DNA of 64,000 bases from the IMG/VR virus record IMGVR_UViG_3300042397_003635; one strand, given 5' to 3'. Below are positions 3,922 to 62,937 of this stretch, piece after piece. The DNA comes from a virus. Taxonomy: Duplodnaviria; Caudoviricetes. Position numbers and translations under genes: made by a program. Numbering within the stretch: the first letter of the stretch is position 1; every line of letters starts with the position of its first letter. Below the pieces are notes generated by a model, which made no database searches, had not been told where the DNA came from, and saw only the letters and a list, made by a program, of their open reading frames with translations.

Positions 3922-3969
3922 TGTTTTTCGGTTTTATTTTTGTTATTTATACGCCAGGAAAAAAGAAAA

Positions 3970-18575: not shown

Positions 18576-18656
18576 ATTTAACTAAGTTATTATACTAAGT
18601 TTATTAACTGGGTTATCAGTCGAAGATAAATATTTATAGAAATAACTCAATTATTA

Positions 18657-19568
18657 ATGGGAAATCACATTAAAAATTTTAAAGGTTGGAAGAACGTTTC
18701 AGAAGCTGGTTCTTGGGGAGAGTGGATGCAATCATTAGTTACTGGCGTAGGAGCAGAGACTCCAGAATTAGGAGCAGATGCAAAGGCTGCATTAACCGGC
18801 GTAAAGACATTAGCTGGTACTGTTGTAGATAAAATTGCAGATACACTAGGAATAGAAACTGACAAAAAGGAAGAACCAAAATCTTCTAAAGCTTTTAAAT
18901 CAAATAGCGGAAAAATTCCAGAAGAACACATTGCCGCATTAGAAGCAGCCATGGATAGACATGGAATTACAAATGAATTTGCAAGAAAGGCTATTCTTGG
19001 AGTAGTATCAAAGGAATCTCCAGATCTAAGACCTGAAGTTGACTATAGTAAAACTTCCAACTCTAGAATTAGAGAAGTATTTGGATCAAGAGTTTCAGAA
19101 TTATCAGATTCTCAACTTGATGCATTAAAAGCTAATCCAACTAAGTTTTGGGATAGAGTATATGGACCAACCGATCCAACTGGAAGAGGCTCAAAATATG
19201 GGAATTCTGAACCGGGCGATGGCGAAAGATATAGGGGTCGCGGATTTAATGGAATTACATTTAAAAGTAATTATATCAATCTTCAAAAAGTATACAATGA
19301 AATTGGTAAACTCGAAACTAATGATACAATCGATATAGTTGATAATCCAGAACAGTTGGAAGATCCAGCGATTGCAGCAGAATTTGCAATTCTTTATTAT
19401 ATCGATAGTTTTAAACGAGCAAATAAAAACCTAAATAACTTTAGTGATTTAGAATCTGCCGTAACTGATTATGTTAGATCAACTGCGGGTTGGGGTTCAG
19501 ATATTACAAGCGGAGTTAAGGCTCAGGGTTTTGCTAGAGCTCTAGACTATGCACAATCATTAGCATAA
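18657..19568 (+). CDS. GH19-like muramidase with CTS-like N-terminus (candidate virion-associated PG hydrolase)
   Basis: MGNHIKNFKGWKNVSE; ILGVVSKES, GNSEPGDGERYRGRGFNGITFKSNY; GATAAATA at 18625-18632. Confidence 0.8.
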   Translation: MGNHIKNFKGWKNVSEAGSWGEWMQSLVTGVGAETPELGADAKAALTGVKTLAGTVVDKIADTLGIETDKKEEPKSSKAFKSNSGKIPEEHIAALEAAMDRHGITNEFARKAILGVVSKESPDLRPEVDYSKTSNSRIREVFGSRVSELSDSQLDALKANPTKFWDRVYGPTDPTGRGSKYGNSEPGDGERYRGRGFNGITFKSNYINLQKVYNEIGKLETNDTIDIVDNPEQLEDPAIAAEFAILYYIDSFKRANKNLNNFSDLESAVTDYVRSTAGWGSDITSGVKAQGFARALDYAQSLA

Positions 19569-19569
19569 T

Positions 19570-19746
19570 ATGAAGATTAGAGATATTAAACCCCAAGATA
19601 AAGATATGGTCGACGGAATAGTCGATATTATAAAACAAGTAAGGGACAAAGATAATCGAGAAGAGATTGCAACCAATATGGTTAAGCAATTAAAGCGAGA
19701 AAAGATTATCTTAAACTACGAAGACTTTTTAAAAGCCTGTAAATAA
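19570..19746 (+). CDS. Small hypothetical protein (58 aa)
   Basis: MKIRDIKPQDKDMVDGIVDII...KACK; directly follows the GH19 gene; below ORF-track cutoff. Confidence 0.55.
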   Translation: MKIRDIKPQDKDMVDGIVDIIKQVRDKDNREEIATNMVKQLKREKIILNYEDFLKACK

Positions 19747-19747
19747 C

Positions 19748-19777
19748 AAAAGCCTCATTAAGCGGCTTTTTCTTTTT
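19748..19777. terminator. Bidirectional intrinsic terminator
   Basis: AAAAGCC-N9-GGCTTTT between the convergent + gene and tRNA-fMet. Confidence 0.65.
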
Positions 19778-19852
<75 letters not shown>

Positions 19853-19894
19853 CTATAATATTTTCAAGATGTGATTGTTGGAAAGTAAAAAAGA

Positions 19895-20750
19895 AAAACG
19901 CTGAGATTATACGTTTTAACGTTAGATCTTTACATAGGATTATTGTTTCCCTACTTATCCAGAGACTTTTGATCTCTACTCTAACAGTGCCGGTTTTTTA
20001 GGTGTACCACTCCTTGAGCTGCGGGTTTGAACTACTCTCCTCATATTATATCTACCAGAACCTGCCGATCCCGTTAACCCTTGCGAGGCTATAGATTTTT
20101 CTGAGAACTCGTATTGGACTTGCGATCCTTTACGGCAACTGACAACCAGTTACTAGGTAGGCACCTTTCGTTCGCAGCTGACGAGCGCTTAAGCTTTGTT
20201 TTAAAATGGATTTTAGTTATTCACCAAAAGAACTTTTTATTTCCAAAGTTTATTGACTCTGTGGATTGTGAAAGTAGTGGCTCGTCACTAGGCCAGCCCC
20301 GATTTTGTCAGGGTCGATACTTAACTACTCTCTGAGATATCCCTACCTCAATTTTTCCGGATTCCTCTTAACTGCAGTCTTGGTAGACTGATGATAAGGT
20401 TAATAACAGCACCACCTGTACATCAACTTGTCTTTCGACTTTAAGGCTCCCATTAAATTGGAGTTCGCAATCATGGAGTCGGATGATTCCACTCCTTGCA
20501 AATATCCTACGAGTTAATCTTATTGAGGTTCCCCTCTCAACTAAACGACCCACATCGCCTAGTCAGCATTCCAGTTCTCCTACAGTGTTACCCTCAGATA
20601 CTTAGGACTTCTGATATCCCGCTTGCCTACTCGAGTTCCTTGCGAAACCGCAGAGCTGATAAGTCATATAGCTCCACTTTATACCTGTTTCCAGGTTTAT
20701 TTGACGATCATAGGCGACCGTTTTGCAACCTAGCAAGCTAGGCTACATAT
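19895..20750 (-). ncRNA. Giant structured ncRNA, GOLLD-like (~850 nt)
   Basis: No credible ORF; elevated GC; many minus-strand hairpins with GNRA loops (e.g. ACCTG-GAAA-CAGGT 20683-20696); four GAGUAG motifs; boxA-like leader; size and tRNA-adjacent phage context match GOLLD; family not confirmed by covariance model. Confidence 0.7.
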
Positions 20751-21038
20751 ATCAATAAGATTCAAAGAACTTGTTTGTGTTACTTATTTATTATACCTAC
20801 TTTATTTGATTTTGGTTTAAATAAGTAAAAAAAAATTAAGGGTTTGAAAAGAGATCCGAAAAAATTTTCGCTAAAAGAGTGTTAAATGTTGATAGGTGCC
20901 ATTTTTGAATTTCTTAAATCTTGAATTTTAAATTCAGAGTCCCTGTCTTAACATCAATTGGATTGCTAGAATAAGTATGTAAATGACGTGCAGTCATATG
21001 CTACCGATTCCTCTTCACTCTTTTCTCTCCCCTATATT

Positions 21039-21467
21039 TTAAATTTTGGTTTTTGCATTGTGAGCTTCTAGCTCCTCTTGCAACATCTCGATTTGAGACT
21101 CCAATTTTTCAATCAATTGATCTTTTTCAACGATTGAGATTTGTGAAGTGTACTTCACTGGAGAATCCATTCGATATGATTGGTGCATTCCTTCTTTGCA
21201 GTCTAAACCTTTCAATTTAGAAACCAAAGATTTTAGTTCAGCTAATCTAAAGATTTTATCATAAACCTTTGCATTAGCTTTGTGAATAGCTGTTTTTAAT
21301 GCAACTAATTCATCAACCGATGTCATTGCTTTTTCCAACGCTTCCTTTGCATCATAAGGACGTGTAGTTCCTTCTTGAATAGAGTTGTACGCTGAAACAT
21401 GCGAAATGTACTCATTAGTTTTTGAAACTAATTTGTTTTTCTGTTTAAGTGCTTTTGTGATATTCAT
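21039..21467 (-). CDS. DIP1984-like all-helical protein
   Basis: MNITKALKQKNKL...LKTAIHKAN...RLAELK...L...NAKT pattern. Confidence 0.6.
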   Translation of the reverse strand: MNITKALKQKNKLVSKTNEYISHVSAYNSIQEGTTRPYDAKEALEKAMTSVDELVALKTAIHKANAKVYDKIFRLAELKSLVSKLKGLDCKEGMHQSYRMDSPVKYTSQISIVEKDQLIEKLESQIEMLQEELEAHNAKTKI

Positions 21468-21522
21468 GTTTTATTGTATTACTTAGTTAATAATAGTTTT
21501 TAATATACCTAAAAAATTTTTG

Positions 21523-21594
21523 AGCGGATGGAGAGAATCGAACTCTCATCTCCAGTTTGGAAGACTGGAGTAATGGCCATTATACGACATCCGC
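21523..21594 (-). tRNA. trnG: tRNA-Gly(TCC)
   Basis: Loop CTTCCAA, U73. Confidence 0.95.
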
Positions 21595-21709
21595 AAATTG
21601 CTGTCTTTCCAAGCTGTCAACCAGTGCACGTTCCAAACCCTTGTTTGGATGACTGCTTCTATTACTAGAATGCTTTATTTGCAAGTCGTCGTTGTGTTGG
21701 ATTTCTGCG

Positions 21710-21815
21710 TAGTCATAATTGGATTCGAACCAATTACAGGCTTTACCATAAAGAGTGCCATTAGCAGTTAATCTCAACCTTGGGGAGGTGCCCTTCAACC
21801 AATGAATTTATGACT
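21710..21815 (-). ncRNA. tRNA-like RNA (106 nt) with the anticodon arm replaced by an extended hairpin
   Basis: Perfect acceptor AGTCATA/TATGACT plus A73, T-arm ATTGG-TTCGAAT-CCAAT, D-like arm TTCA-TTGGT-TGAA; about 55 nt central region with no 7-nt anticodon loop. Confidence 0.6.
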
Positions 21816-21820
21816 ATTTG

Positions 21821-21894
21821 CGGTCCGTACGGGACTCGAACCCGTGATCTCCTACGTGACAGGCAGGCGTCCACTCCAACTGGACCGACAGACC
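21821..21894 (-). tRNA. trnD: tRNA-Asp(GTC)
   Basis: Loop CTGTCAC, G73. Confidence 0.95.
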
Positions 21895-21997
21895 ATTTAG
21901 ATATTTCAGAAGAGGTTACTAAACTTCAGCTCTTCAAAGCTTCTCAGCTTACAGCGTTCCGTCAATTGTTTACGCTGCTAACTTATTCGGTAAAGCG

Positions 21998-22069
21998 TAG
22001 CCCGTACGAGAATCGAACTCGTCTCTCACCCGTGAAAGGGGCGTGTCCTAACCGATAGACTAACGGGCC
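21998..22069 (-). tRNA. trnE: tRNA-Glu(TTC)
   Basis: Loop CTTTCAC. Confidence 0.95.
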
Positions 22070-22074
22070 AAGGA

Positions 22075-22260
22075 CAAATCTTGCATGCTCACCATGCTTG
22101 TGGATTTGATTGAACATAGTTTACTGTTCACCTGTTTTGAGTGCACCAAAGAGCAGGGTCCATCACATAATACCTTGGGTCATGTATACTTCATTGGGTA
22201 GCTACTCCCACGAAGCCAAGGTCTCTTTCAACGGTGCTAATCCGTCTTATGTAAGATTTG
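22075..22260 (-). ncRNA. Candidate structured RNA (~186 nt) between tRNA-Ala and tRNA-Glu
   Basis: Ends pair (CAAATCTT/AAGATTTG); internal ACCTTGG/CCAAGGT, TGGG-AGTAGCTA-CCCA, TGAACA/TGTTCA and GCATG/CATGC helices. Confidence 0.55.
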
Positions 22261-22263
22261 TAG

Positions 22264-22337
22264 TGGAGATGACAGGAATCGAACCTGCGACCCTCTGCGT
22301 GCAAGGCAGATGCTCTAGCCAACTGAGCTACATCCCC
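22264..22337 (-). tRNA. trnA: tRNA-Ala(TGC)
   Basis: G3-U70, loop CTTGCAC. Confidence 0.95.
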
Positions 22338-22382
22338 GTTTACTGTAATTATTATACTATAAACAAGCTAATAATTGCATTG

Positions 22383-22455
22383 AGCCTCCTGTCGGAATCG
22401 AACCAACGACCTACTGATTACAAATCAGTTGCTCTACCAGCTGAGCTAAGGAGGC
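22383..22455 (-). tRNA. trnT: tRNA-Thr(TGT)
   Basis: Loop TTTGTAA. Confidence 0.95.
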
Positions 22456-22574
22456 AAATAGATGAAGTATGACGTCTACTTAATTTACAGCAACCTTCTG
22501 ATAAATTAAGGGTTCTCTTCATCATTGTGGACATAGACTCATCGTCTACTCTTGGGCTTCCACTAGCCCCTTTG

Positions 22575-22645
22575 TTGTCCCGCAAGGATTCGAACCTCGA
22601 TTATCTGGACCAAAACCAGATGTGCTGCCGTTACACCACAGGACA
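22575..22645 (-). tRNA. trnQ: tRNA-Gln(TTG)
   Basis: U1-A72, loop TTTTGGT. Confidence 0.95.
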
Positions 22646-22648
22646 GTA

Positions 22649-22671
22649 TACTTTCCAATACGTCAAAGACC
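22649..22671 (-). promoter_or_regulatory. boxA-like antitermination/leader element
   Basis: GGTCTTTGACGTATTGGAAAGTA, near copy of 25085-25108. Confidence 0.5.
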
Positions 22672-22677
22672 AATTTG

Positions 22678-22759
22678 TGCCTGCAGATGGACTCGAACCA
22701 CCGAACCCGTAAGGGAGCTGATTTACAGTCAGCCGCAATTGCCGCTATGCGATACAGGC
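22678..22759 (-). tRNA. trnY: tRNA-Tyr(GTA)
   Basis: Loop CTGTAAA, long variable arm. Confidence 0.95.
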
Positions 22760-22765
22760 ATTATT

Positions 22766-23437
22766 CTATTTTCTAGGCTTTTTAGAAATTACCTCATCGA
22801 TAATTCCATATGCCTTTGCTTCTTCAGCACTAAGCCAAAAGTCTCTAGTTGCATCTGCTTTAACTTGTTCTGGATCTTTATCACAATATCCACCAAGTAA
22901 AACAAATAGCTCGTCATTTACTTTTTGCCACTCTTTCCAATCAATTTCAGCATCTTGGATATTTCCACTGAAACCTCCTGAAGATTGATGCAACATTGTA
23001 GTTGAGTGTTTTAGTGAGCTCCGCTTTCCTTTTGTGCCAGCTCCTAACAACACTGATCCCATTGATGCAGCCATTCCAGTATTAACTGTTCTGATATCAC
23101 AGTTAATATAATCCATTACATCAACCATTGATAAGCCGCTCTTAACACTTCCACCTGGACTATCAATATGCATAGTAATATCTAATCCATCAACTGAATC
23201 CAAAAACATTAGCTGAGCTTGCACAATAGTCGACATATGATCGTTGACTGGACCTGCTACCCAAATTAGTCTTTCCATCATTAATCTGGAAAAAATATCC
23301 ATTTGAGTTGCACGTAATTCGCGCTCTTCTAAAATATAAGGAGTCATTGACGACTCAATCTGCTTTTGATGGTAGTGCATATTCAATGAAGAAATGCCAT
23401 GCTTACTCATCGCGTATTTTTCAAATTCGTTTCTCAT
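22766..23437 (-). CDS. clpP: ATP-dependent Clp protease proteolytic subunit
   Basis: DIFSRL..ERLIW, IDSPGGSV, AASMGS (Ser), TMLHQ (His), RDFWLSAEEAKAYGIID. Confidence 0.95.
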   Translation of the reverse strand: MRNEFEKYAMSKHGISSLNMHYHQKQIESSMTPYILEERELRATQMDIFSRLMMERLIWVAGPVNDHMSTIVQAQLMFLDSVDGLDITMHIDSPGGSVKSGLSMVDVMDYINCDIRTVNTGMAASMGSVLLGAGTKGKRSSLKHSTTMLHQSSGGFSGNIQDAEIDWKEWQKVNDELFVLLGGYCDKDPEQVKADATRDFWLSAEEAKAYGIIDEVISKKPRK

Positions 23438-23468
23438 ACAATTATTATACTAATTTAGTTATACTATG

Positions 23469-23543
23469 TGCTTTCTACAGGGTTCGAACCTGTGACCTCC
23501 TCGGTGTAAACGAGGCGCTCTGAACCAGCTGAGCTAAGAAAGC
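23469..23543 (-). tRNA. trnV: tRNA-Val(TAC)
   Basis: Loop TTTACAC. Confidence 0.95.
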
Positions 23544-23632
23544 ATATATACGTCTTTCCGTATTGTCATCAATTTTGATGGGCTCATCTGACAGTCTTTA
23601 AACTAACCAGCACTTGAGATTGAAACTCCTTG

Positions 23633-23706
23633 TGATCCCGAATGGACTCGAACCATTGACTCCCTCATTAAAAGTGAGGTGCTCTAACCAACTGAGCTAC
23701 GAGATC
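23633..23706 (-). tRNA. trnK: tRNA-Lys(TTT)
   Basis: Loop CTTTTAA. Confidence 0.95.
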
Positions 23707-23711
23707 ATTTG

Positions 23712-23786
23712 TTGCGGGACTGGGACTCGAACCCAGAACTTCAGCTTATGAGACTGACGAGATAGCCACTTTCTACGCATCCCGCA
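23712..23786 (-). tRNA. trnM: tRNA-Met(CAT), probable elongator
   Basis: Loop CTCATAA; U1-A72 paired; lacks initiator GGG/CCC; slightly irregular D arm. Confidence 0.8.
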
Positions 23787-23790
23787 ATAT

Positions 23791-23865
23791 TGGCGTCCCA
23801 GGAAGGATTCGAACCTACGACCTAGCGGTTAACAGCCGCTTGCTCTACCACTGAGCTACTGAGAC
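23791..23865 (-). tRNA. trnN: tRNA-Asn(GTT), CCA encoded
   Basis: Loop CTGTTAA, G73. Confidence 0.95.
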
Positions 23866-23868
23866 TTT

Positions 23869-23942
23869 TGGCACGCCTGAAAGGATTCGAACCTCTAACA
23901 GCGGTTTTGGAGACCGACATGATACCATTTCACCACAGACGT
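23869..23942 (-). tRNA. trnW: tRNA-Trp(CCA), CCA encoded
   Basis: Loop CTCCAAA, G73. Confidence 0.95.
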
Positions 23943-23950
23943 GTATGTTG

Positions 23951-24020
23951 AGTACAAGGTTGGAATCGAACCAACACCAATAGTTTTGCAGACCATCCGA
24001 CCACCACGATCATCCTGTAC
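23951..24020 (-). tRNA. trnC: tRNA-Cys(GCA)
   Basis: Loop CTGCAAA, U73; A rather than U at position 8. Confidence 0.85.
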
Positions 24021-24027
24021 TTATATG

Positions 24028-24099
24028 TAGTCAATAAAGGACTCGAACCCTTACCTCTTGATCCGTAGTCAAGTGTTCTATCCATTGAACTAATCGACT
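24028..24099 (-). tRNA. trnR: tRNA-Arg(ACG)
   Basis: Loop CTACGGA. Confidence 0.95.
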
Positions 24100-24196
24100 A
24101 AAACTATGTGTCTCTCCACATCTGTCATACTTCCCTTGTATTCTGTTCTGGCGAATAGCCGTTCCTAACGGTAAAGCAGTATCAAAAACCAGTATG

Positions 24197-24270
24197 TCGA
24201 ACTGGATGGACTCGAACCATCGACCACTCGCGTATCAGGCGAGTGCTCTAACCAACTGAGCTACAGTTCG
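24197..24270 (-). tRNA. trnI: tRNA-Ile(GAT)
   Basis: Loop CTGATAC. Confidence 0.95.
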
Positions 24271-24317
24271 ATTGAATTAGAGCAAATATAAAACAAATAT
24301 TTGACACTAAAAAATTT

Positions 24318-24746
24318 TTAATCAACTTTTTTCCAATCTTTTTCTTCTCCTAATCTGATAGGAACAAAGAGGGCGAATCCATTATCATCTTCAAAATGAT
24401 TGCAGGTATCAATATAAGTGTTACCGAACTTATATCTCCAATATTCAAATTCCTGCTTCTCAGCATTCCATTTAGCTGTTGTGGCATTACGAGTGTCGCC
24501 AATATAAACTTGACCATGGATCAGGTCGAGTTTTGGAATCGCTCCTCTTTGTATAAGTTTTGGAACATAAAAGTTTTTATATTCTTCGGGCTCTGCTCTA
24601 GGAATAGTTGGAACTTCATGTGGCTCCTTAAATGGAGTAGTTTCAGTTTCCCAATATTCCCTAATACGCTTAGCCCTTTCTGCTCTTTCATGCTCAAGTT
24701 GCTTTTGTATCTTGAGTTTCATAAACTCTTTGTCTATATTTTCCAT
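24318..24746 (-). CDS. Hypothetical protein embedded in tRNA cluster
   Basis: 142-aa ORF with phage-like codon use. Confidence 0.7.
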   Translation of the reverse strand: MENIDKEFMKLKIQKQLEHERAERAKRIREYWETETTPFKEPHEVPTIPRAEPEEYKNFYVPKLIQRGAIPKLDLIHGQVYIGDTRNATTAKWNAEKQEFEYWRYKFGNTYIDTCNHFEDDNGFALFVPIRLGEEKDWKKVD

Positions 24747-24769
24747 AATAACAATTTACTAATTTTAAG

Positions 24770-24854
24770 CGGAAGCTGAAGGATTCGAACCTTCGGGACC
24801 GTTAAGTCCACAGCTTTAGCAAAGCTGCACAATAGACCACTCTGACAAACTTCC
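24770..24854 (-). tRNA. trnS: tRNA-Ser(GCT)
   Basis: Loop TTGCTAA, long variable arm, G73. Confidence 0.95.
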
Positions 24855-24855
24855 T

Positions 24856-24932
24856 TGGGGTAATTAATGGGATTCGAACCCATACTAGCAGAACCACAAT
24901 CTGACGTGCTAACCATTAACACTATAACTACC
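24856..24932 (-). tRNA. trnH: tRNA-His(GTG), G-1 and CCA encoded
   Basis: G-1:C73, loop TTGTGGT. Confidence 0.95.
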
Positions 24933-25008
24933 ATAAAACCCCACTTCACCAGCTTAACGGACTGGCTGCCATATGGGAGTGGGGGTACCCCGTTAATTCG
25001 GGACTCCG

Positions 25009-25081
25009 TGGACAGGGGCGGGATCGAACCGCCGACACCAGGATTTTCAGTCCTGTGCTCTACCTACTGAGCTACCTGTCC
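25009..25081 (-). tRNA. trnF: tRNA-Phe(GAA)
   Basis: Loop CTGAAAA. Confidence 0.95.
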
Positions 25082-25084
25082 AAA

Positions 25085-25108
25085 TACTTTCCAACATGTC
25101 AAAGAACC
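25085..25108 (-). promoter_or_regulatory. boxA-like element at the head of the tRNA cluster
   Basis: GGTTCTTTGACATGTTGGAAAGTA, resembling rRNA-operon boxA (B. subtilis GTTCTTTGAAAA). Confidence 0.55.
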
Positions 25109-25120
25109 TATTCTATAAAA

Positions 25121-25150
25121 ATAAAAAACCCGAACTTTTTGGGTTCGGGC
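25121..25150 (-). terminator. Intrinsic (attenuator) terminator upstream of the tRNA cluster
   Basis: GCCCGAAC-CCAAAAA-GTTCGGGT-TTTTTAT. Confidence 0.85.
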
Positions 25151-25186
25151 TCAGTGTTTCTATAGCTACTAACTTTATAATACCTA

Positions 25187-25285
25187 TCAACTCCTGAACC
25201 CTGTTGCACGATCATTGCCTGTCCACTTCGCATACGCTACTTGGCTAAAGCAATTCTCGGTAATATGGTTCATTTGTGTTTGCAT
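25187..25285 (-). CDS. Leader peptide (32 aa) of a putative transcription attenuator
   Basis: MQTQMNHITENCFSQVAYAKWTGNDRATGFRS*; codons 29-31 (GGGTTCAGG) complement the 5' arm of the terminator (CCCGAACCC); TATAAATA 22 nt upstream. Confidence 0.75.
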   Translation of the reverse strand: MQTQMNHITENCFSQVAYAKWTGNDRATGFRS

Positions 25286-25306
25286 CACTTTTGTTATTTG
25301 TATAGT

Positions 25307-25314
25307 TATTTATA
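25307..25314 (-). promoter_or_regulatory. T4-late-like promoter TATAAATA driving the leader/tRNA unit
   Basis: Exact T4 gp55 late consensus; same (G/T)ATAAATA motif recurs upstream of about 10 genes in the window. Confidence 0.55.
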
Positions 25315-25460
25315 TTAGCTAATATACAAAAAGTTTTTGACAATTAGCACTTTTATTTAAAAAATTTAAAAATTAACCTTCAGGGGCTTCACCTGCCTTC
25401 TAGTATACTTAGAACCTCCAATCTAATGGTCAGTTCAGAGCTTTTGACTTTGGTTAATTT

Positions 25461-25913
25461 TTATGCTGTGTGTTCAATCATTACCCTTACACAAGTTTGA
25501 GGTTGGGCTTCGTTCATTAAGAAGTTATTAATATACCCCATAATATTGGCACTTCCAATTGGATTTGCTGAGTGAGTATAGACCAGTGGAAATGGAAAAG
25601 GCTTTCCGCGTTTTACATCTCTCGCCAAGTCGATCCACTTTGGATTCTCATTATAAAACTGGTCAACTAACCATTTAGCACAGTCATATCCAGTTTTCTC
25701 ATTAATGTGAGTATAATCTAAAATATAATTAGGGCTTACATTATTGAAGTACTCACTCATGGCAGAATCCCCTAAGTCATGGTCAAGAGAAATTACTTCA
25801 ATATTTGCTAAACCTGTTTCCTTAACTAGGCTTACAAATTCTTCATAATTTCTAACTACAACCCAGTCAGTTCCAACTGGAGTTCGGACATCGTCTAAAT
25901 AAATTCTAATCAT
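25461..25913 (-). CDS. Cyclic-phosphate-processing receiver domain protein (RNA repair associated)
   Basis: IYLDDVRTP, ISLDHDLG, TGYDCAKWL, HSANPIG..NI. Confidence 0.8.
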   Translation of the reverse strand: MIRIYLDDVRTPVGTDWVVVRNYEEFVSLVKETGLANIEVISLDHDLGDSAMSEYFNNVSPNYILDYTHINEKTGYDCAKWLVDQFYNENPKWIDLARDVKRGKPFPFPLVYTHSANPIGSANIMGYINNFLMNEAQPQTCVRVMIEHTA

Positions 25914-62807: not shown

Positions 62808-62937
62808 GGTGCGTCTCTTCGTCGGGGCCCGCTACGGAAATCCTCGGGGTCGGGCGACCGCAGGAGAATCGGACATTAGGTAGAAGCTTGTAGACACCGG
62901 GCGCCAGGCTGTCTACTAGTCTGGTATAAATAACCTT

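Follow-up and report, generated by a model that had tools for sequence, protein, structure and literature searches.

Little is known about the regulation of phage-borne tRNA genes; for tRNA genes in general, the accepted levels of control are initiation and the stringent response rather than attenuation. The question is raised by a 64,000-nucleotide stretch of viral DNA (Duplodnaviria; Caudoviricetes; IMG/VR record IMGVR_UViG_3300042397_003635), the whole of which is referred to here as the window. On its minus strand, a short open reading frame (ORF) and a terminator lie directly ahead of an array of tRNA genes. What decides whether RNA polymerase enters this array? The evidence presented below makes it very probable that this leader is a ribosome-mediated (leader-peptide) transcription attenuator that gates the phage tRNA array. 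The window contains the parts that define this class, namely a short ORF before a Rho-independent terminator, leader codons cognate to the tRNAs downstream, and an antiterminator that is mutually exclusive with the terminator and that a ribosome could mask. These parts are arranged as follows.

25187..25285, minus strand: leader ORF (ATG at 25285, stop codon 25189-25187; 32 codons plus the stop)
25208..25282, minus strand: sensor region, codons 2-26, with each amino acid present one to three times
25193..25201, minus strand: antiterminator 5' strand GGGTTCAGG, codons 29-31, 4-12 nucleotides (nt) before the stop codon
25126..25154, minus strand: terminator hairpin, a 10-base-pair (bp) GC-rich stem (25152-25143 with 25135-25126) with the loop CCAAAAA
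25113..25125, minus strand: terminator U-tract
25081 (start), minus strand: tRNA-Phe, the first gene of the array

A spacer of 37 nt separates the stop codon of the leader ORF from the terminator, and tRNA-Phe starts 45 nt past the terminator stem.

The leader peptide contains 18 residue types, all of them encoded by the first 26 codons; Leu and Pro are missing. The tRNAs of the array cover the very same 18 amino acids (F, H, S, I, R, C, W, N, K, V, Y, Q, T, A, E, D, G and M). Both the 32-codon ORF and this match between its first 26 codons and the tRNA cluster were present as a preliminary description of the locus had stated, and the Leu and Pro tRNAs, which it had placed outside the cluster, were found beyond a convergent plus-strand gene. 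Given the amino-acid frequencies of the window, the chance of 18 or more residue types in 26 codons is P=0.005, and that of exactly this set, with Leu and Pro as the sole absentees, is P about 8e-6. Only one of the 217 small ORFs of the window reached 18 types, presumably the leader ORF itself. When standard wobble rules were applied by hand, 29 of the 32 leader codons could be read by the array's own anticodons. The preliminary description had named AGG as the sole exception, but ACC and GGC were likewise left without a matching array anticodon. The leader ORF has no Shine-Dalgarno sequence, a signal that is rarely used in Bacteroidota.

Folding the leader for alternative structures, as the preliminary description had proposed, yielded two energetically coherent alternatives. 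The fold of the complete leader scored -51.4 kcal/mol (z -4.4) and contained the intact terminator. Leaving out the upstream half of the ORF allowed the antiterminator to form, at -22.6 kcal/mol once the 5' arm of the terminator had been made; in this minimum free energy fold, GGGUUCAG (25201-25194) paired with CUGAGCCC (25154-25147), and this 3' strand is part of the terminator 5' arm. With the antiterminator strand free in the complete RNA, the antiterminator (-28.8 kcal/mol) was more stable by 5.7 kcal/mol than an enforced terminator (-23.1 kcal/mol). Masking a ribosome footprint at the stop codon in a constrained fold brought back the full 10-bp terminator, at -20.5 kcal/mol. In these computed folds, the predicted switch is energetically coherent. 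An antiterminator pairing GGGUUC:GAACCC had been claimed earlier; it is mutually exclusive with the full terminator, but RNAfold favoured the register given above, which imposes the same exclusion.

The trp/his-type logic proposed for the locus was retained in one respect and abandoned in another. The antiterminator and terminator are mutually exclusive and the antiterminator strand can be masked by a terminating ribosome, but the 1:2 hairpin (anti-antiterminator) of the trp type is not a general feature. In the window, the 1:2 candidate was a 6-bp pairing, UGAACC:GGUUCA, which was not above chance. Across 26 leaders, the best upstream partner averaged 6.0 nt, compared with 5.9 nt in shuffles, and the hairpin was therefore dropped as a general element. 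As there is no general anti-antiterminator, the best model is a two-state switch, in which transcription would read through unless a ribosome reaches the end of the ORF in time.

Loci for comparison were gathered via a protein encoded inside the array and via a 17-mer found after the terminator. Leaders were chosen by geometry only (an ATG ORF of 20-50 codons, a stop codon 20-45 nt before a terminator, and a terminator at most 260 nt from a tRNA) and were clustered into 33 unrelated families from contigs of related phages. A recurrent anatomy was found in unrelated leaders: a Bacteroidota-type TAnnTTTG promoter, then an ORF (about 20-50 codons) and a terminator, in many cases the 17-mer, and last the tRNAs. 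The composition of the leaders followed the content of the arrays, a relationship that the preliminary description had asked to see examined in related phages. The fraction of leader residues with a tRNA in the downstream unit was 0.617, compared with 0.463 when units were permuted among leaders (z 9.75, p<1e-5), and none of 100,000 permutations reached the observed value. All 19 amino acids tested were commoner in leaders when their own tRNA was present in the unit. This signal was found in the frame of the ORF only, the other two sense frames and the three antisense frames giving z values from -2.2 to 1.4, which excludes an explanation by base composition or an RNA motif and favours decoding. 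Where one contig carried two leaders, the amino acids served by just one of the two arrays were preferred by the peptide of that array (combined Fisher p=2e-10), and genome-wide composition is thereby excluded as the cause.

Individual families illustrate this rule. A leader rich in F, K, W, S and H precedes a Phe-Lys-Trp-Ser-His array, and one rich in S and R precedes an Arg-Ser-Arg-Ser array. Contig L093 carries two arrays; its first leader uses the amino acids of the first array, and its second leader, in which L, P, N, Q, Y and G abound and AGA and ATA codons occur, is followed by tRNAs for Leu, Arg(TCT), Pro, Asn, Tyr, Ile(TAT), Gly and Gln. Other arrangements were also observed. In L152, two leaders stand in tandem before one Phe-Lys-Trp-Ser-His array. 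A widespread family with leaders of 44-48 codons (L188, L123, L149 and L200) contains all 20 amino acids, or 19 in its shortest member, and precedes arrays of more than 20 tRNAs, often with a separate promoter after the terminator.

The match extended in part to the level of isoacceptors, as had been claimed for the window. In units containing a U34 tRNA, four-fold degenerate leader codons ended in A or G in a ratio of 96:33, compared with 47% in the long ORFs of the phages (p=2e-10), and the choice between the CGN and AGR boxes of Arg matched the anticodons of the unit (p=0.02). The corresponding choices for Ser (TCN or AGY) and Leu (CTN or TTR) were not significant across families.

The position of the cognate codons was informative. 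Cognate codons were enriched 1.6- to 2-fold, but only from codon -21 to codon -4 relative to the antiterminator strand; their frequency was at baseline in the last three codons before the strand, inside the strand, and in the first five or so codons of the ORF. These limits fit a ribosome footprint, because a ribosome stalled within about 10 nt would mask the antiterminator strand.

Covariation of the antiterminator pairing, a further test put forward in the preliminary description, gave a specific result. The 3' end of the ORF (its last 36 nt plus 12 nt) was complementary to the 5' arm of its own terminator over a run averaging 7.6 nt, compared with 4.4 nt for the 5' end of the ORF, 5.3 nt in shuffles and 5.5 nt with the terminators of other leaders (z 10.2). 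A clean compensatory pair was found between L093 and L098, with CCCGAGGT/ACCTCGGG in the former and CTCGAGGT/ACCTCGAG in the latter.

A short nucleotide motif recurs near the start of the leaders.

25263..25267, minus strand: CATAT motif, conserved, at +18 from the ATG

Of the 33 leader families, 21 carried CATA[TC] within their first 45 nt, where 4.4 would be expected, and in most of these its position was +15 to +21 relative to the ATG; carriers include the leaders of L041, L091, L093, L098, L123 and L233. The motif would act at the RNA or DNA level, since it is found in different reading frames. Candidate roles are a pause site, a factor site or an initiation signal. It is similar to the ACATAT core of the boxA 17-mer described below.

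Closer to the window, the leader ORF was kept in 17 related contigs, representing 10 distinct sequence variants including the window. The nearest virus record shared 38% of sampled words and carried the same leader at 95% identity, the intergenic DNA upstream being unrelated. Differences among these close leaders were limited to three synonymous third-position changes, a replacement of Thr9 by Ile (both cognate to the array), a replacement of codons 27-28 that brings in Leu in most relatives, and a change of Ser32 to Arg. More divergent homologues were sought in several ways. A degenerate back-translated pattern matched 13 stretches in metagenome contigs, all nearly identical, and an nhmmer search with the leader against all collected loci returned only the 95%-identical group. 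GenBank phage records contained no relative of the window leader, nor any tblastn match to the 47-amino-acid (aa) leader of another family. The closest named relative of the gene upstream of the leader comes from Flavobacterium phage immuto, in which this kind of attenuator is absent.

Between the attenuator and the first tRNA lies a motif of the type found in ribosomal RNA (rrn) operons.

25091..25107, minus strand: rrn-type boxA motif GTTCTTTGACATGTTGG, a 17-mer

Many phage contigs have this 17-mer, with R at position 13, ahead of their tRNA arrays. Bacterial DNA yielded it in 120 stretches, most of them assigned to Bacteroidota by their record titles. Of its 122 occurrences there, 70 came immediately after the tRNA-Ile/Ala of the rrn spacer, and closer inspection of eight loci placed it in the 16S-23S spacer, between tRNA-Ala and 23S rRNA, in six. 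The spacer boxA of rrn operons occupies the same position in E. coli rrn antitermination, and a comparison by hand showed that nine of 11 positions of the E. coli boxA core (GCUCUUUAACA) are alike in the phage 17-mer. The occurrence of this 17-mer in Bacteroidota rrn spacers identifies the host phylum. Unlike the boxA elements of rrn operons or the lambda nut sites, the one described here heads a phage tRNA array, downstream of a regulated terminator. Judged from its sequence, the phage appears to place a host rRNA antitermination signal right after the attenuator, an arrangement that would suit a long transcript that is not translated. In the viral contigs L205, L179 and L193, a tRNA-like sequence, scored as a tRNA-Thr(TGT) heading the unit (ARAGORN-based), was observed between the leader terminator and boxA, so boxA can lie inside an array and not only at its head.

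Transcription of the leader could start from either of two candidate promoters, and a third candidate lies within the array.

25319..25350, minus strand: start of the conserved block, with a candidate Bacteroidota-type promoter (TTTTTG at 25332-25327, TATATTAG at 25326-25319)
25307..25314, minus strand: TATAAATA, an octamer like the T4 late promoter (exact match), 22 nt before the ATG; alternative promoter candidate
24283..24290, minus strand: TATATTTG, candidate internal promoter, a perfect TAnnTTTG 13 nt before tRNA-Ile

Conservation with the relatives starts abruptly at about 25350, and the intergenic DNA further upstream is unrelated. The TTTTTG-TATATTAG block is homologous to TTTTGTATATTTG / TAnnTTTG elements ahead of other leaders. 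The octamer had been singled out earlier as promoter-like and is present, but the block just upstream of it (25332-25319) is a second candidate, and the leader promoter may be either. With four copies in the window and 8.7 expected, TATAAATA is rarer than chance, which would fit a motif of the T4 late promoter type that is avoided at other sites. Its other copies were located at 18631-18638 (minus strand), 3944-3951 (minus strand) and 62925-62932 (plus strand), and one copy lies about 55 nt upstream of tRNA-Leu(TAA). The sequences flanking TATATTTG are similar to the leader's promoter block, and this element may add unregulated transcription of the distal tRNAs. TAnnTTTG as such was not enriched in the window (73 matches, 84 expected).

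We propose the following mechanism. Transcription would start about 15-35 nt before the leader ORF, and a ribosome would translate the 32 codons as RNA polymerase moves toward the terminator. If decoding is fast, the ribosome would arrive at the 3' end of the ORF or at its stop codon and cover GGGUUCAGG (codons 29-31); the 10-bp terminator would then form, and transcription would stop before tRNA-Phe. If the ribosome lags at any of roughly 20 sensor codons (about 6-26), the matching charged tRNA being scarce, the antiterminator strand would be left free to pair with the 5' arm of the terminator and polymerase would read through. The rrn-type boxA would be transcribed next and would probably recruit host rRNA antitermination factors, so that the long untranslated array is completed. 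The outcome would be closed-loop control, in which the tRNA set for 18 amino acids is made when the combined host and phage pool decodes slowly. The triggers suggested in the preliminary description, anticodon nucleases or starvation, are conjectural.

Several observations weigh against this proposal or limit it. Translation of the ORF, termination at the hairpin and the response to tRNA supply are what we infer, and the metatranscriptome contigs that cover the locus give no transcript ends or levels at the leader. The leader family of the window is nearly invariant, so that coding constraint rests on few substitutions, and it is too uniform to prove coding alone. Most of its relatives carry a Leu codon, TTA, at codon 28; this position belongs to the non-sensing zone, and because codons near the strand cannot signal, the Leu codon would be harmless. 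Without a conserved anti-antiterminator, an untranslated leader would read through, unlike that of trp. The TATATTTG element could feed most of the array independently. In the comparison across families, the boundaries of the units were often incomplete or set by rule, the families are perhaps not fully independent, and the matches of the Ser and Leu boxes fall short of significance.

These points bear differently on the explanations that compete with a leader-peptide attenuator of the whole array. One holds that the attenuator is real but local, governing tRNA-Phe, His, Ser and a 142-aa ORF, and that the other 17 tRNAs are made mainly from the internal promoter before tRNA-Ile, perhaps with others. 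The perfect TAnnTTTG at 24290-24283, its leader-like flanks and its retention in close relatives speak for such a division, but these relatives are too close for conservation to count and the motif is not enriched in the window. A local attenuator would also leave it unexplained that the leader samples all 18 amino acids of the array and not just F, H and S, and boxA directly after the attenuator suggests a long processive transcript; we regard this explanation as unlikely. That the ORF encodes a small protein with its own function, the terminator merely ending its mRNA, is very improbable. Although the ORF is conserved in all close relatives, the peptides of different families resemble each other only in a nucleotide-level motif, yet each mirrors its own tRNA set; the 3' codons are dictated by RNA pairing, and the 40 nt between the terminator and tRNA-Phe leave no room for a promoter.

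It is even harder to credit that the ORF is a chance occurrence of coincidental composition, with the hairpin acting like any other terminator, at the end of the upstream gene or of a brief non-coding RNA, and the tRNAs made by leaky read-through. The missing Shine-Dalgarno sequence (unremarkable in Bacteroidota), a 1:2 pairing no better than chance and metatranscriptome contigs that are uninformative on leader expression all speak for such an ORF. The comparative statistics, however, argue strongly against it: the coincidence in the window (P about 8e-6) is joined by a frame-specific composition signal in 33 families (z 9.75), a within-genome contrast (p=2e-10), a positional footprint pattern that fits a ribosome, and pairing specific to the leader's own terminator (z 10.2). 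Least probable of all is direct sensing of tRNA by the RNA, T-box-like or by another riboswitch, with no translation. A structured leader that exerts antitermination control over genes of the translation apparatus does recall T-boxes, but the 64-kb window contained no match to a T-box or other riboswitch at Rfam gathering thresholds, the association with tRNA identity was seen only in the ORF frame and at the wobble position, and 18 different tRNAs could hardly be bound by one RNA. The leader-peptide attenuator remains the explanation that we favour, and the window is a clear 'pan-array' example of it.

The unit placed under this attenuator comprises 20 tRNA genes, three ORFs and two RNAs.

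19778..25081, minus strand: regulated unit; tRNAs in order Phe, His, Ser-GCT, Ile-GAT, Arg-ACG, Cys, Trp, Asn, CAT, Lys, Val, Tyr, Gln, Thr, Ala, Glu, Asp, Gly and initiator-like Met
24746-24318, minus strand: ORF, no assignment
23712-23786, minus strand: CAT-anticodon tRNA, found by Rfam and missed by ARAGORN
23437-22766, minus strand: ClpP-family protease gene (Pfam E=2e-56), mid-array between tRNA-Val and tRNA-Tyr
22167-22105, minus strand: freshwater-1 RNA (72.4 bits, just at the gathering score), between tRNA-Ala and tRNA-Glu
21467-21039, minus strand: ORF near DUF6847
20332-19898, minus strand: GOLLD RNA, full-length match (242.6 bits), directly upstream of the initiator-like tRNA-Met
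19852-19778, minus strand: last tRNA of the array, Met (CAT), initiator-like
19741..19770, minus strand: weak 7-bp hairpin with a T-tract after the last tRNA, facing the convergent gene
18657-19568, plus strand: convergent gene beyond the array
25461-25913, minus strand: cREC_REC 'cyclic-phosphate processing receiver' gene (Pfam E=1.5e-21), directly upstream of the leader

We infer that the array is made as a single transcript. ARAGORN identified 19 tRNAs between 25081 and 19778, in agreement with the number first reported, and Rfam added one more. The additional CAT tRNA may be a tRNA-Ile2 or an elongator Met, so the statement that Ile2 is not part of the cluster is unproven. The last tRNA has the hallmarks of an initiator when inspected by hand, with a 1:72 mismatch and three G-C pairs in the anticodon stem. 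A terminator had been described after it; a hairpin is indeed present at about 19770-19741 and is the probable end of the unit, but it is weak, with only 7 bp. The array does not include the Leu, Pro, Arg(TCT) and Ser(TGA) tRNAs, which are encoded past the convergent gene. No leader/terminator module was found upstream of the Leu, Pro, Arg-TCT, Ser-TGA and Met (14350) tRNAs of the window, all of which lie among protein genes.

Lake and river metatranscriptome contigs cover the array, the GOLLD region very deeply. In three runs, contigs covered 19934-20960 at depths of hundreds to thousands, with flanks from near zero to tens. The expressed GOLLD-region RNA may be about 1 kb long, probably reaching about 20960. 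Genes of RNA-repair type adjoin the array, the cREC_REC protein being an example; by its Pfam name, it is suggestively tied to the processing of cyclic-phosphate ends of RNA.

The logic of the locus is that of classical leader-peptide attenuation, as known from the leaders of biosynthetic operons (trpL, hisL, pheL, leuL, thrL and the multivalent ilvGMEDA leader for Ile/Leu/Val), and is closest to the multivalent ilv and pheST leaders. Like the leaders of the biosynthetic operons, it has a short ORF just before a Rho-independent terminator, regulatory codons that would report the supply of charged tRNA, and an exclusive choice between antiterminator and terminator in which a ribosome at the end of the ORF favours termination. 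Unlike these leaders, which contain runs of one to three amino acids and control enzymes, the phage element targets tRNAs and samples 18 amino acids once to three times each; it is borne by phages of Bacteroidota and is followed by an rrn-type boxA. It also differs from trp in having no conserved 1:2 hairpin, so that read-through would be the default in the untranslated state. The pheST operon of E. coli, which encodes phenylalanyl-tRNA synthetase and has the pheM leader, is likewise under leader-peptide attenuation, so that part of the decoding machinery is made according to how much charged tRNA is available; there, however, a single amino acid is sensed and the target is a protein-coding operon of the host. 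T-box riboswitches likewise sense the status of tRNA and choose between antiterminator and terminator ahead of translation-related genes, but each binds one uncharged tRNA directly and has no ORF, whereas the phage leader has no T-box match and a reading-frame-specific signal. What is new relative to known attenuators is the target (tRNA genes), the breadth of sensing (18 amino acids here and 20 in some families), the lack of a 1:2 hairpin and the coupling to boxA. No published description of attenuation of tRNA arrays was found in open-access full text.

With a leader that monitors as many as 18-20 amino acids, a textbook mechanism would gain a new class of target genes and the capacity for multiplexed sensing, and such a leader would represent a natural, compact and programmable sensor of decoding speed. 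The rule that leader codons match downstream anticodons predicts transcription units in uncultured phage genomes, and phage tRNA arrays are linked by these findings to host rRNA antitermination signals. More tentatively, large Bacteroidota phages may run their tRNA supply as a closed loop, each array being headed by an evolvable 'codon panel' that gauges how fast ribosomes move over precisely those codons that its tRNAs read, co-evolves with the gain and loss of tRNAs and hands polymerase over to a hijacked host rrn antitermination system. The same loop might also fire when host defences cut or deplete tRNAs and so act as an infection-time trigger of counter-defence, a scenario to which, taken as a whole, we give somewhat less than an even chance. 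The attenuator would also provide a testable route by which these phages might answer tRNA-targeting host immunity or starvation.

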